Source of the DNA: Eledone cirrhosa
Taxonomy: Eukaryota
Assembly: GCA_964016885.1 (NCBI GenBank)
Contig: OZ024761.1
Span: 5,456,001 to 5,520,000, forward strand
Direction: 5' to 3'
DNA length: 64,000 nucleotides
The notes beneath the pieces were generated by a model. That model ran no database searches. It had not been told where the DNA came from and saw only the letters and a list, made by a program, of their open reading frames with translations. The position numbers and the translations under genes are program-made. Position 1 is the first letter of the stretch; each line of letters begins with the position of its first letter. Below, in pieces: positions 26,244 to 48,282 of the stretch.

Positions 26244-26308
26244 TATTTCATTATACATATTTCAAGGACACCAAGTCAAATTATGGTGCGCTTTCATCAG
26301 ATAAAATA
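26244..26308 (-). ncRNA. Minimal type I hammerhead motif (family H1)
   Basis: Minus strand TATTTTAT-CTGATGA-AAGCGCACCA..TGGTGTCCTT-GAAA-T(ATGT)A-TA-ATGAAATA. Confidence 0.75.
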
Positions 26309-26598
26309 TAATATAGATCAGTTTTATAAATAAATATTGACATACCCTTAAAGAATGCAACCATTTCTGTTGGAAGCTCCCGGATAGGATATATATATAT
26401 ATATATATATATATATATATATATATAATGTATAATAAACAATACAATATAATTACCTTGTATTATAATTATATTGTATTAGTTAACTTTGCCTTTCATC
26501 CTTACGGGGTCGATAAAATAAAGTACCAGTAATACACTGGGTAATTTGCTGGCCTTGTGCCTTACGTAGAAACAATTATAATTATATTGTATTGTTTA

Positions 26599-27452
26599 CT
26601 AGCAGTAAAGCCCGGCGTTGCTCGGGGTCGCTCAGTAGCTGTGTTAAAGTTACAATGTTAAGTTTCTTTTTTGGCTTAAAAACTGTAGTGTCTACTGTGC
26701 AGACTTGCATGTGGTGTTTTTGATTAATATTCCCTCAACCAACAATATGCCTTATGAAGTTAAGAAAACATAACGATAACCCGAATGTTATAACAAAAGA
26801 GGATGCTGGGGATAAAAACTGCACTGGTTATTTATTAACAAAGATCGAAAATGTAAACACTGCAACGCAGAGAAAAACATTAGCGTAACCAAATTATCAG
26901 TTATGTCTGTCTGCACGCCTATATCACCTCTCTGCACGACTGTCTGTCTGCACGCCTATATCACCTCTCTGCACGACTGTCTGTCTGCACGCGTATATCA
27001 CCTCTCTGCACGACTGTCTGTCTGCACGCCTAACGACGAAATATTTGCTTGTTTTACGTAGTCTTTAAATAGACTTGTTTTCAAGTAAAAATATTGTTTT
27101 AAAATGCTTTTAAATGGAAATGAAGCAAAATGGAAGCTTAGAGTTCGAACTGATGAATTTTGCAGGTCAATATTTTAAACGCTGAGAAAGCCAGCGTAAT
27201 TTTTTACGTAAGACGCTCAATGTAAACAGAACAAAGGGAAATAACTGATAACTTACGCTCAAAAATCGATACATTATATTCGATTTCGTCACATAGGGTG
27301 GGTGAATTTGAAATTTTTTTTTTCCCGATGTCTTCGCTAGGGCTCAATGTACAAGTATAGCAATTTCGGTGCAATTCCGTGAGAGATTCTAAGAGGAGAT
27401 GTGTGCCAAAAATCGATAGACAGACAGACAACCACAGTTTTATATATATAGA
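26599..27452 (-). mobile_element. Non-autonomous Helitron (family A), copy 2
   Basis: A|TC 5' end, hairpin plus CTAG|T 3' end; near-identical to 2456-3498 with two internal deletions and fewer 37-bp units. Confidence 0.85.
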
Positions 27453-27990
27453 TTATACATTAAATTTAGCTCTGGTACTTATATAGAGCACTCTTCACTC
27501 CTATGACTTTTTCAATTTCCAACGGAAACTTCAATACTTATATATATTATTCAAAATATTAACAAATGAAGATATTCACATCTTTAAGAGATGAAGAAAT
27601 CCCGAAGAACTCCATCATCTATTAGTAATCTATTGCAGAAGAAGCGCTCAACCTTTAGGGAGCTAAATATGACCAAAGATTAATTTGGTTCATTGAGTAA
27701 TAAATGAACCAAATTAATCTTTGGTTATATATATATATATATATATATATATATATATATATTTATATATAGTTATGTAATAAACAACATAAGATAATTA
27801 TTTCATTTACCAGTGGTTTCTTGAAAGCAAACAAATAAGCTCTGTAACCTACATAGAGCACTCTTTTTTCCTGGACCTTTCCGACTTCATTCATTCACAC
27901 ACACACACACACACACACACACATATATATATATATATATATATATATATATATATATATATATATATATATATATATATGTATACATAA

Positions 27991-28285
27991 TCTACATACA
28001 TAAATGGCAATTTCTGTCTGTCTGTCTGTCTGTTTGTTTGTGAACCTAAAACTCAAAAACTACTTCATGAAACTTGACACGTGTGTGGGGCTCATGCCCA
28101 TTTGATTTCTTACGTATATTTTATTTTAATCAAAGGGTTCCCCGGGGCCCCAAACCCACGCTGAAAATGTTTTACCTTCGATTTATATGAAATTCAAACC
28201 ATAGGTAAATGACAAGATATGATGCCTATTCACAACATTTCAGCAAATTTCAATAATATTAAGACACCCTAATGGTAGTTCTGTT
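27991..28285 (+). mobile_element. Helitron family B 5' portion
   Basis: A|TCTACATACATAAATGGCAATTTCTGTCTG; reverse-complement match to about 45850-46140. Confidence 0.75.
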
Positions 28286-29976
28286 TTTCCCTGTGTATGT
28301 ATATACATTATACATATATATGTATATACATAACGGCGATGAATTAGTTTTGCGAGGTTTTTGATATGAAATCGTGTGTCGAAACAAATATTGTTATACT
28401 TGATATATTGATATAAACAGACTAAATAAAGATGGCGTAGAAAATACAATGCAACGGGAGGAAACAATAGCACCACTGACGATGTTGCAGATGTGCAACG
28501 AAAGAACTTTGATAAACTATATATATGTGTTTGTGTCTATATTGTATCTGTATTATTTTTGACCGTTGGTCAGTCAATGGCAACATTGAGGACCAAATAA
28601 ATTAGATTACCGATATAAAAGACACAAAAGCGAAAAGCGAAAACCAACCAAACAGTGAGTGTGTTCTGTTATTAATTCTGGCAATATTACACACAAATTA
28701 CACAAATATGACCCTCCCCAAGTATAACAATATGTATATACATACATATATATGTATTTACATACATACATACACACTACTATGTTGTCCTCTTTCCCCA
28801 TCCAATTCGCTCTGTGCCAATAACTTATTTTAGTTATTGCTCGCACTGATTTTGAGGTATCTGGTCTTTAATGCTAAGAAATACCAATGATAGTCAGCAG
28901 ACTACTGATGATGGACAGTCCCGTTTCTCGCTCTATTTTCATTCATATGTAGCACGCCATTGTTTCATTTATATATAGAGAGAGATAGATGAACACACAC
29001 ACACACACACATACACACACACACACACACACACACACACACACACACATATACACACATACACACACACACACACACACACACACACACACACACACAT
29101 ATATATATACACATGGCTGTCAATAGTTATTATGGTCCGTTTGTATACCTTAATTTATTCTTTTGATTGAGTTCTATAAACCATTCTATCCCTAATTAAT
29201 ATATTCGTCACCCTGGTGGTTTTCAATCCCTCTGAACACACACACACATGCATATGTGTGTGTGTGTGTGTGTGTGTGTGTCTGTGTGTCTGTGTATGGA
29301 ATTCTCTCTTTACTGTGTTATAAAGAACTCGGAATTTCTTACTTGAGCTTATTTGATTATAACGGAATATTGTGAGTTTGTAAGCCAGCATTTCAATTTA
29401 ATACACATACACACACACACACACACATATATATGTGTGTGTGTATGTGTATATATATATGTGTGTGAGTATATATATATATATATATGTGTATATATAT
29501 ATATATATATGTGTGTGTGTGTATATATATATATATATGTGTGTGTGTGTGTGTATATATATATGTGTGTGTGTGTGTGTATATATATGTGTGTGTGTGT
29601 GTGTGTATATATATGTGTGTGTGTGTGTGTGTGTATATATATGTGTGTGTGTACATGTATGTATGTGTGTGCGTTCGCGTAGAGCGAGGAAATTTGACAC
29701 TGGATAATGAGGGTGAATTAGGAGGCAGTTACACTTCTAGACAAAGACATGGAAGGGGTGTGGTGAGAGGAGATGTTATGAGGATGTGAAGAAGTGGCAG
29801 ATGGCCCCCCCCCCCATCTGCCACGTGGGTAAAACTAACCCCCCACGCCGCCCCCACCCTACCAAAATAAAAAAAAAAAAAAAAAAGCCCCTGAAATGTT
29901 TGAAAATTTATTTTTAAAAATGAGGTAAAAAAACGGAACTATTTCTGTGTTAGGGTGGGCAACTTTTGGTTTATGT

Positions 29977-46715: not shown

Positions 46716-46940
46716 CAATATATAAACAGTTTTATAAATAATTTTGACGTACCCTATTATAAGCGACCATTATTTTTGGAAGCTTATATATATATATATA
46801 AGCAAAGGTATATTTAATTTGTTGGTAATTCAACACACATACATATATATTTATAACAGATTCGAAGCACTCGACAAGTTTTCTGGAGTATAATATCAAT
46901 GATATTAAATAAATGGAAACTATCTTTATAAAACCATATT

Positions 46941-47001
46941 TATTCTATTATATATATTTCAAGGGTACCACAACTTTGGTACGTTCTCATCAGATAAAAT
47001 A
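46941..47001 (-). ncRNA. Minimal type I hammerhead motif (family H1)
   Basis: TATTTTAT-CTGATGA-GAACGTACCA..TGGTACCCTT-GAAA-TATATA-TA-ATAGAATA. Confidence 0.72.
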
Positions 47002-47326
47002 TAAAGTTTGTTTTATAAATATTGACATATCCAGGAATGAGACCTTAACGGTTTAAGTTTCACCTGGATATATAGTTATATATATAGTTACGTAATAAAC
47101 AACAGTCAATTTCCTAAAACTGTAGAGTGCTCAACTTATCGGGCTGGAAGATGCCAATCACATATGAGATATAGAATATGCTTCGATCATTCCCGGTGGG
47201 AGGTGTATAAATGAAGTATTTCCGTAGGAAAGGTAAAGGAAAAGAGAGTGCTCTATGTAGGCTACAGAGCTTTAGGAAATTCCTTTACCTTTCCTACGGA
47301 AATACTTCAAATATATATATATATAT

Positions 47327-47666
47327 GGAGGCACATGGCTTAGTGGTTAGAGCATTGGCCTTGCAATCGAAAGGTTGTGAGTTCAATTCTCAGACCGGGT
47401 GATGTGTTGTTTCCTTGAGCAAGACACTTTATTTCACATTGCTCCAGTTTACTCAGCTGTAGAAATGAGATGATAGGGACTGGGGTCCCTATCATTCCAC
47501 TGCAAAGTGGTCGTGGAGGTGCCACGGCAAAAAGCACCCAGCACTCACTGTAAATGAGGTTGGTGTTAGGAAGGGCATCCAGCTGTAGAAATCAAACCAG
47601 AATCAGTTCCCGTCCCACCCTTGCAAGCAGGGAAAAGTGGACGTAAAATGAAATGATGATGATGAT
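47327..47666 (+). mobile_element. Young tRNA-derived SINE with CORE-like domain and RTE-type (GAT)n tail
   Basis: A box TGGCTTAGTGG, B box GAGTTCAATTCT, CCTTGAGCAAGACACTT, tail GGTGTTAGGAAGGGCATCCAGCTGTAGAAA..(GAT)n; near-identical copy at 49185-49524. Confidence 0.88.
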
Positions 47667-48211
47667 ATATATATATATACAAATGGAAGTTTAGTAAAAT
47701 CGAAATTTCGGCGGTGGCCAAGCTAACGAGATACAATTAGGTTTGTGCAGCAAAGCACTCAATAGGGTGTATCACCCTAGAGTAAGTAACATACGTTAGA
47801 TAGCGTGACAAATTGAAAACTGCGGCAGGGGCGCCTAGCCACATAATACACCAAAAACAACGAAAATACAATCAGGTATATATATATATATATATATATA
47901 TATATATATATATATATATATATATATATATATATATATATATATATAGTTGAGAATCCGAATATGGTGAAACAAATGTTCTCGGTATGTTATGGAACTA
48001 CTTCTACTAAACTCGTCCCATGGACTGAGTGCTCTACTACTACGAATATAACCCCCCAGTGTTCTACTATTATATATATATATATATATATATATATAAT
48101 ATAAGATCAAAAGATGGTTAAACGAGTTCCAAGTGAAGTTTTAAATCAACATATGTTGATTTAAAACTTCACTATTCACAAGTGTTTTTTAACCTTCATA
48201 TCATGTATCTC

Positions 48212-48282
48212 TATTTTATCTGATGAAAACGCAGATGTCATCTCATGATGATATTTGTTTTTGAAATGCGCATAATAAAATA
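48212..48282 (+). ncRNA. Minimal type I hammerhead motif (family H1) with palindromic helix III
   Basis: TATTTTAT-CTGATGA-AAACGCAGATGTCATC(TCAT)GATGATATTTGTTTTT-GAAA-TGCGCA-TA-ATAAAATA. Confidence 0.82.

Follow-up and report, generated by a model that had tools for sequence, protein, structure and literature searches.

Hammerhead motifs with a palindromic helix III in an octopus probably form the 3′ ends of a Penelope-like element family

For Penelope-like elements (PLEs), a palindromic helix III and cleavage as a dimer are already established (PMC4209133, PMC6765202). A model joining dimer cleavage to retroelements has been published as well, and the same sources report that many such motifs cleave poorly or not at all (PMC4209133, PMC6765202, PMC7229834, bioRxiv 10.64898/2026.07.22.740005). 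The hallmarks of PLEs are inverted 5′ copies, palindromes at the junctions, a tail at one end, and microsatellite targets (PMC3846280, PMC8557442). PLEs of the Hydra clade target (TA)n, have a hammerhead close to their 3′ end that frequently lacks the G10.1-C11.1 pair, and are present in Octopus (PMC8557442); one octopus PLE hammerhead is found in the supplement of that paper. In Octopus vulgaris, PLEs are abundant and partly recent (PMC13282606). Axolotl retrozymes depend on dimers, and retrozymes have been proposed to derive from PLE ends (PMC7229834; bioRxiv 10.64898/2026.07.22.740005). We analyzed 64,000 nucleotides (nt) of Eledone cirrhosa DNA (assembly GCA_964016885.1, contig OZ024761.1, positions 5,456,001 to 5,520,000), hereafter the window, which contains a family of seven hammerhead motifs referred to as H1. 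The H1 copies are likely the 3′ ends of a PLE family, probably of the Hydra clade or a non-autonomous derivative of it, and an 8-nt palindrome would have to join two copies before their ribozymes could self-cleave.

A core scan of both strands with a structural parse confirmed six type I hammerheads that an earlier note had proposed from the bare sequence. The outer helix I limits of this set, 26244 and 48282, match the range given in the note, and the shared helix I strands, palindromes, AUA triplets, and distal stem II segments are all as quoted there. The seventh member lies beyond that range at 53761(+). It shares the core, the palindrome, and the arrangement of helix II with the other six, and its helix I is replaced by a fully compensated 5-bp helix. 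A structure scan demanding at least 8 pairs in helix I and at least 6 in helix II returned 6 motifs in the window and none in any of 40 dinucleotide shuffles. The pattern derived from the copies had 7 matches in the window and none in 100 shuffles, a circular comparison in that the pattern was built from those copies. The strict H1 pattern had 0 matches in viral contigs and 0 in metagenomes. A relaxed pattern matched 33 metagenome loci, which were rejected as chance hits (helix I of at most 3 pairs in 33/33, best model E-value 0.24). No Rfam hammerhead family reached the gathering score in the window or appeared among the weak matches listed (150 of 248). This miss does not define the fold because curated models need not cover variants. 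The other matches in the Rfam scan were tRNA-like heads of short interspersed nuclear elements (SINEs) and microsatellite-driven miRNA noise.

All seven copies have the CUGANGA and GAAA core boxes with an NUH triplet, which is AUA in each case. By their sequence, they are type I hammerheads, and self-cleavage is predicted after H17. The core is identical at 15/15 positions (N7 excluded), while helix II has a mean identity of 0.52 and the flanks 0.55/0.62. The fold has three helices and is open at helix I. Helix I comprises 8 bp (5 in copy 7) and can be extended to 21–38 predicted pairs in 5/7 copies, helix II comprises 9–16 bp, and helix III has either 2 bp or, between two molecules, 8 bp. Specifically, helix II is composed of 3 pairs directly after A9, an unpaired pair 4, and 5–12 further pairs. 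Its closing pair is A-U in four copies, G-U in two, and G-C in one, and copies 2 and 5 have one A.C mismatch apiece. Pair 4 is never formed, being C.C in 6/7 copies and C.U in the remaining one. Aside from it, the 16 helix II positions include just one that is invariant, which makes the constant C at 10.4 and the lack of pairing at pair 4 conspicuous. The same mismatch was seen by eye in a loose-end contig of a public run with a different organism label (X6). It could be a new tertiary contact; a literature search on a helix II mismatch in this role found no paper.

The 8-nt palindrome spans A15.1 to U16.1. As in the min-HHR (minimal hammerhead ribozyme) consensus, positions 15.2–16.2 and loop 3 are palindromic, perfectly in four copies and with two G.U pairs upon self-pairing in three. 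In the monomeric option, helix III has 2 bp (A-U, U-A) and a 4-nt loop. Two other features of that consensus fail: the extra nucleotide between A9 and 10.1 is absent from 7/7 copies, and the G10.1-C11.1 pair is missing in 6/7. Hence, the note's term "minimal" is wrong for hammerheads with such long helices I and II, and its 1-bp helix III has to be replaced by 2 bp and a 4-nt loop inside the palindrome. Its stem II pairs exist as quoted; they cover only the distal part of a helix that begins at the core.

Helix II pairing is conserved despite the sequence differences. Across the seven copies, 54/56 helix II cells are paired and 12/19 pairs have changed on both sides (alignment A1), and none of 500 shuffles reaches any of five measures. 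Slid registers pair 35–50% compared with 92% for the actual register. The claim of a fixed core beside a stem II that differs and still pairs thus stands; about half of the helix II positions differ. Two caveats apply to the covariation, namely that the copies are related and that the structure was derived from the same copies. Selection on helix II pairing is supported, and likely acted on transposon lineages, not on the host. The earlier note had stressed the TATATA/TGCGCA swap; made up of four transitions, it counts as a single event, which on its own is weak evidence and no more than suggestive. A general palindrome rule is better supported by other hammerhead families of the window, which use the palindromes ACTAGT and ACGT. 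We consider it very unlikely that the pairing simply results from shared ancestry, transition bias, and DNA hairpin repair with no selection on a ribozyme. Transitions do account for 27/35 (77%) of helix II differences from the consensus, and a transition-only null reproduces the paired fraction. Against this stand an invariant core between flanks near 50% identity, transversion pairs in helix II (U-A versus G-C, G-C versus C-G), and the fully replaced helix I of copy 7.

We then consider how helix III might form. In folding calculations, the pair probability of monomer helix III is 0.001–0.014, at a cost of about 3 kcal/mol. As a double hammerhead, the natural tandem of copies 5 and 4 reaches −61.1 kcal/mol, and as two monomers −49.9 kcal/mol, a gain of about 11 kcal/mol for the former; the unconstrained minimum free energy (MFE) is −65.9 kcal/mol. 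The H1 ribozymes are predicted to self-cleave only as pairs via the palindrome, a reading that agrees with the folding models and with the literature (PMC4209133, PMC6765202). This heterologous tandem is a natural substrate for comparing monomer with dimer. The ribozymes might instead act as monomers, stabilized by their long helix I together with a tertiary contact at the C.C of helix II, the palindrome being kept as a TATA-like or (TA)n-like DNA signal or similar. The extended helix I of five copies is in line with this, as is the position of the invariant mismatch where loop 2 begins in canonical hammerheads. Moreover, a TATATATA element in a pseudo-long terminal repeat (pLTR) was interpreted as a promoter (PMC3846280), and AUA, the slowest triplet tested in a viroid hammerhead, does cleave in that natural monomeric ribozyme (PMC1636495). 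We nevertheless regard monomer action as unlikely, as the monomer is predicted to lack helix III, copy 6 has a GCGC loop that is still palindromic but no longer TATA-like, and the other families of the window use different palindromes.

Each H1 copy resides in a block of 160–470 bp between microsatellites or (TA)n tracts. Blocks of up to 310 bp between dinucleotide tracts hold 6/7 copies, compared with 22% of the background bases. The 3′ ends are bimodal with respect to the predicted cut, at +51 to +55 in three copies and at +132 to +148 in four, which defines an optional tail of about 90 nt. An inverted arrangement is found at 2/7 loci (copies 2 and 6), in both of which the tail is at one end only. 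The inverted arm of copy 6 skips exactly the 108-nt folded hammerhead domain (48174–48281), at a 3-nt microhomology. These inversions, the junction palindrome, and the optional tail match the PLE hallmarks. The earlier note had missed this retroelement-end context, in which dimer-type hammerheads are expected, not surprising. The cleavage site is spanned intact by every copy; the template was therefore uncleaved RNA, re-ligated RNA, or antisense RNA, not simple cleaved linear RNA.

Copies 5 and 4 are arranged in tandem, 286 nt apart with copy 5 upstream. As they are only about 76% identical and are split by a short (TA)n tract, they likely represent two separate insertions into one (TA)n tract. 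A single rolling-circle dimer was rejected, the units belonging to different subfamilies. This pair also bears on the possibility that H1 is a classical retrozyme satellite without long terminal repeats (a non-LTR retrozyme), namely a fixed unit of about 280 nt that spreads in head-to-tail arrays via circular RNA and has no PLE-type ends. Retrozymes are known in molluscs (PMC7229834), and the 160–310-nt unit, low GC content, type I hammerhead, 286-nt spacing, and clustered 5′ starts all fit one. This account is nonetheless improbable. Five of the seven copies are solo, the sole tandem joins two subfamilies across (TA)n, unlike one rolling-circle insertion, and inverted arms, a junction palindrome, and an optional tail are typical of PLEs. 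In any case, retrozymes and PLEs overlap as classes, given the proposal that animal retrozymes are PLE derivatives (bioRxiv 10.64898/2026.07.22.740005).

At the start of the H1 tail lies a hairpin with the motif RCTC-loop-GAGY-RCT. This motif, defined post hoc, occurs 14 times in the window versus a mean of 0.8 in shuffles (maximum 4 among 200). At 27469, 27663, 27839, 47270, 47783, and 48011, the scans found a tail hairpin with no complete hammerhead alongside. These lone hairpins probably belong to ends from the same class of elements that have been heavily truncated. Inspected by eye, the hairpin is present in 3/6 novel Hydra consensus sequences in the PMC8557442 supplement: Hydra-2_Amil and Hydra-2_Ajap have it at the 3′ end and Hydra-1_Ajap at the 5′ start. 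A fourth, Hydra-1_Crog, has a near match. H1 also resembles this clade in its preference for (TA)n insertion and in having a hammerhead close to the 3′ end, which are not clade-specific because they are common to Neptune and Naiad. The hairpin, compared by eye, is the sole pointer to the Hydra clade, and it suggests that the tail may be the start of the next unit. It could also be an end signal for PLE integration, for which a search of titles and abstracts found no paper. The formation and integration of PLE ends are regarded as unresolved in the field. More tentatively, H1 might be a distinct hammerhead subtype in which the C.C at helix II pair 4 forms a new tertiary docking site replacing the loop 2 contact, borne on a non-autonomous unit of about 280 nt moved by Hydra-clade PLEs. 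The hairpin, which is shared by coral, sea cucumber, and several of the octopus families, would then be a cis signal that sets the end and the tail. If true, this possibility would give a handle on how PLE ends, tails, and inversions form.

One element (46801–47076) was matched to 4 of 12 public runs at 80% likeness. The matches comprise 6,531 contigs (X1), 26,661 reads (X10), 44 contigs (X5), and 8 contigs (X6), which are not copy numbers; of the other runs, X7–X9 had small shares. The H1 family is abundant in public runs. The depth of X10 was rejected as a copy number, as a single loose-end consensus that stops in helix II accounts for 10,839 of its reads; this end is likely a restriction site of a restriction site-associated DNA (RAD) library. 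Among the 40 of 67 variant rows listed, none is on a core position or on pair 4, and 15 lie between 46910 and 47006, 8 of them in helices. Six of these eight keep or restore pairing alone, including an A-to-G change in the palindrome. The A.C mismatch of copy 5 (46984) is repaired in about 98% of X1 depth. Loose ends in the runs enter (TA)n at 46897–46908, and there are a few opposite-strand joints.

The metalloproteinase exon is the only host exon found in the window. No other exon of its 520-amino-acid homologue was found in the 64 kb, which points to very long introns. Four of the seven H1 copies lie on the strand of this exon, as they would if they were host-selected regulatory ribozymes acting on the metalloproteinase pre-mRNA. 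Such a role is hardly to be expected, since three copies are antisense, the family is abundant elsewhere, and the copies show private decay, such as the 46984 mismatch.

If H1 copies are PLE ends that act in pairs, as we favor, they would be inserted at (TA)n by a PLE reverse transcriptase/GIY-YIG endonuclease encoded elsewhere. Solo copies would be near-silent because the 2-bp helix III is unstable. Transcription through tandem ends would give double hammerhead folds and, by dimer cleavage, RNA of unit length, which may be re-ligated before PLE-driven insertion at (TA)n. Selection would act on successive source elements rather than on these individual copies. Several results weigh against this account. 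The 13-nt core-flank motif of H1 has 0 matches in the published Hydra/Naiad file (PMC8557442 supplement), and Pfam found no reverse transcriptase or GIY-YIG domain among 133 open reading frames (ORFs) scanned in the window. The tail of about 90 nt is longer than the published 30–40 bp, and 6/7 copies start within a narrow 66–88 nt upstream of the core, a pattern that a fixed short unit would explain no less well than truncation. The P value of the paired fraction is 6e-5, 0.001, 0.03, and 0.5 under nulls with 50, 67, 85, and 100% transitions, respectively, and a large part of the conserved pairing is consistent with such a bias. Two of the eight listed helix variants break pairing unless the partner changes, a change that does occur in other copies of the window. 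As for the dimer, the double-hammerhead fold of the natural tandem is 4.8 kcal/mol above the MFE, and the AU-rich dimer helix is weak in 6/7 copies (−2.2 to −3.2 kcal/mol). Published PLE hammerheads cleave poorly, dimers included (PMC4209133), and 8/9 tested retrozyme dimers were uncleaved (10.64898/2026.07.22.740005).

The window holds further hammerhead-like sequences. A second family, at 765(+), 13658(-), and 20884(+), has a helix III of 3–4 bp resembling that of Hydra-1_Obim. Its tail carries the same hairpin motif as the H1 tail, and the member at 20884 has an inverted arm with a tail. Other motifs lie at 35593(-), 53525(-), 61396(-), 32007(-), 32147(+), and 28476(+). Those at 35593, 53525, 61396, and 32007 have an extra nucleotide after A9 and a short palindromic or near-palindromic helix III, the min-HHR pattern by eye. 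Another repeat family, at 22986(+), 54224(-), 54456(+), 54472(-), and 35304–35383, combines hammerhead boxes with a longer hairpin in place of helix III and with inverted arrangements. A repeat with hammerhead-like boxes, GC-rich hairpins, and a variant of the tail hairpin occupies 958–1124, 20318–20441, 32688–32741, and 48538–48653. Elsewhere, tRNA-like heads of a SINE family near the Rfam tRNA threshold are located at 32534–32591(-), 47336–47393(+), and 49194–49251(+). Nine copies of a 157-bp unit, composed of a SINE fragment and (TA)n and 97% identical, form a tandem array at 21432–22858. The ORF fragments at 1784–2161(+) and 36935–37357(+) match only DUF6451, weakly, and resemble decayed non-LTR retrotransposon proteins. 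A run of N at 4070–4269 marks a 200-base assembly gap.

Table 1. Positions of H1 hammerheads, tail hairpins, inverted parts, and the host exon in the window (C3, core position; site, predicted cleavage site)
Feature	Position	Strand	Details
Copy 1 hammerhead	26244..26308	-	C3 26300; site after 26252; block 26107-26388, tail present
Copy 2 hammerhead	33681..33742	-	C3 33734; site after 33689; block 33634-33886; tail-less 3′ end +55 into (TA)n
Copy 3 hammerhead	41302..41368	+	C3 41310; site after 41360; tail-less end +52
Copy 4 hammerhead	46651..46715	-	C3 46707; site after 46659; block 46519-46784, tail; downstream unit of heterologous tandem
Copy 5 hammerhead	46941..47001	-	C3 46993; site after 46949; block 46801-47076, tail
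Copy 6 hammerhead	48212..48282	+	C3 48220; site after 48274; GCGC loop; 16-bp helix II; block 48099-48406, tail
Copy 7 hammerhead	53756..53811	+	C3 53761; site after 53806; C.C mismatch; block 53695-53857; tail-less end +51
Tail hairpin, copy 1	26172..26194	-	RCTC-loop-GAGY-RCT at tail start
Tail hairpin, copy 4	46580..46602	-	motif match
Tail hairpin, copy 5	46866..46889	-	motif match
Tail hairpin, copy 6	48325..48352	+	motif match
Inverted 3′ tail joined to 5′ end of copy 2	33810..33886	+	copy 2 itself tail-less
Inverted 5′ arm of copy 6	48091..48173		arm tail-less; perfect 42-bp junction palindrome 48132-48173
Matrix metalloproteinase exon	30840..31111	-	84% identical to protein named MMP-2 of Octopus sinensis; AG/GT flanks

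The literature search, which covered sources other than the PMC13282606 supplement, one PMC4209133 supplement file, and Lunse et al., found no published description of this octopus H1 family. Among known systems, the hammerheads of PLE pLTRs, among them variants whose helix III is small and palindromic (Cervera and de la Pena 2014, PMC4209133), share with H1 the type I topology, the palindrome of 15.2–16.2 and loop 3, and AU-rich flanks. Both are mostly solo, have opposite-strand pairs nearby, comprise many divergent families per genome, and have been proposed to cleave as dimers. Different from the min-HHR consensus of that paper, H1 has no extra nucleotide after A9 and, in 6/7 copies, no G10.1-C11.1; its helix I is longer (8 bp or more), helix II has 9–16 bp with the invariant pair-4 mismatch, and the triplet is AUA. 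The one supplement file searched from PMC4209133 has no octopus row.

Hydra-clade PLEs, such as Hydra-1_Obim of Octopus bimaculoides (Craig et al. 2021, PMC8557442), resemble H1 in their (TA)n target and in a hammerhead about 100–200 nt from the 3′ end. In both, non-G-C closing pairs of helix II are common, an A at the cleavage site, as in AUA, is frequent, and the tail hairpin motif is found by eye. Unlike H1, the Hydra hammerheads described there have a helix III of 3–4 bp, and that of Hydra-1_Obim resembles the family at 765, 13658, and 20884 instead. Metazoan non-LTR retrozymes (PMC7229834; bioRxiv 10.64898/2026.07.22.740005) are likewise low-GC units, of 170–400 nt, with a type I hammerhead and common monomers, but H1 has no homogeneous tandem array in the window and does have inversions and an optional tail. 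As in the double hammerheads of newt and viroid (Forster 1988) and the PLE variants of Lunse et al., both as cited in PMC4209133 and PMC6765202, an unstable palindromic helix III would be rescued by dimerization. Dimer-dependent hammerheads at PLE ends are textbook knowledge. What H1 contributes is a further family in a further host group rather than a mechanism, and only two leads go beyond the literature found, namely the invariant mismatch of helix II and the hairpin of the tail.

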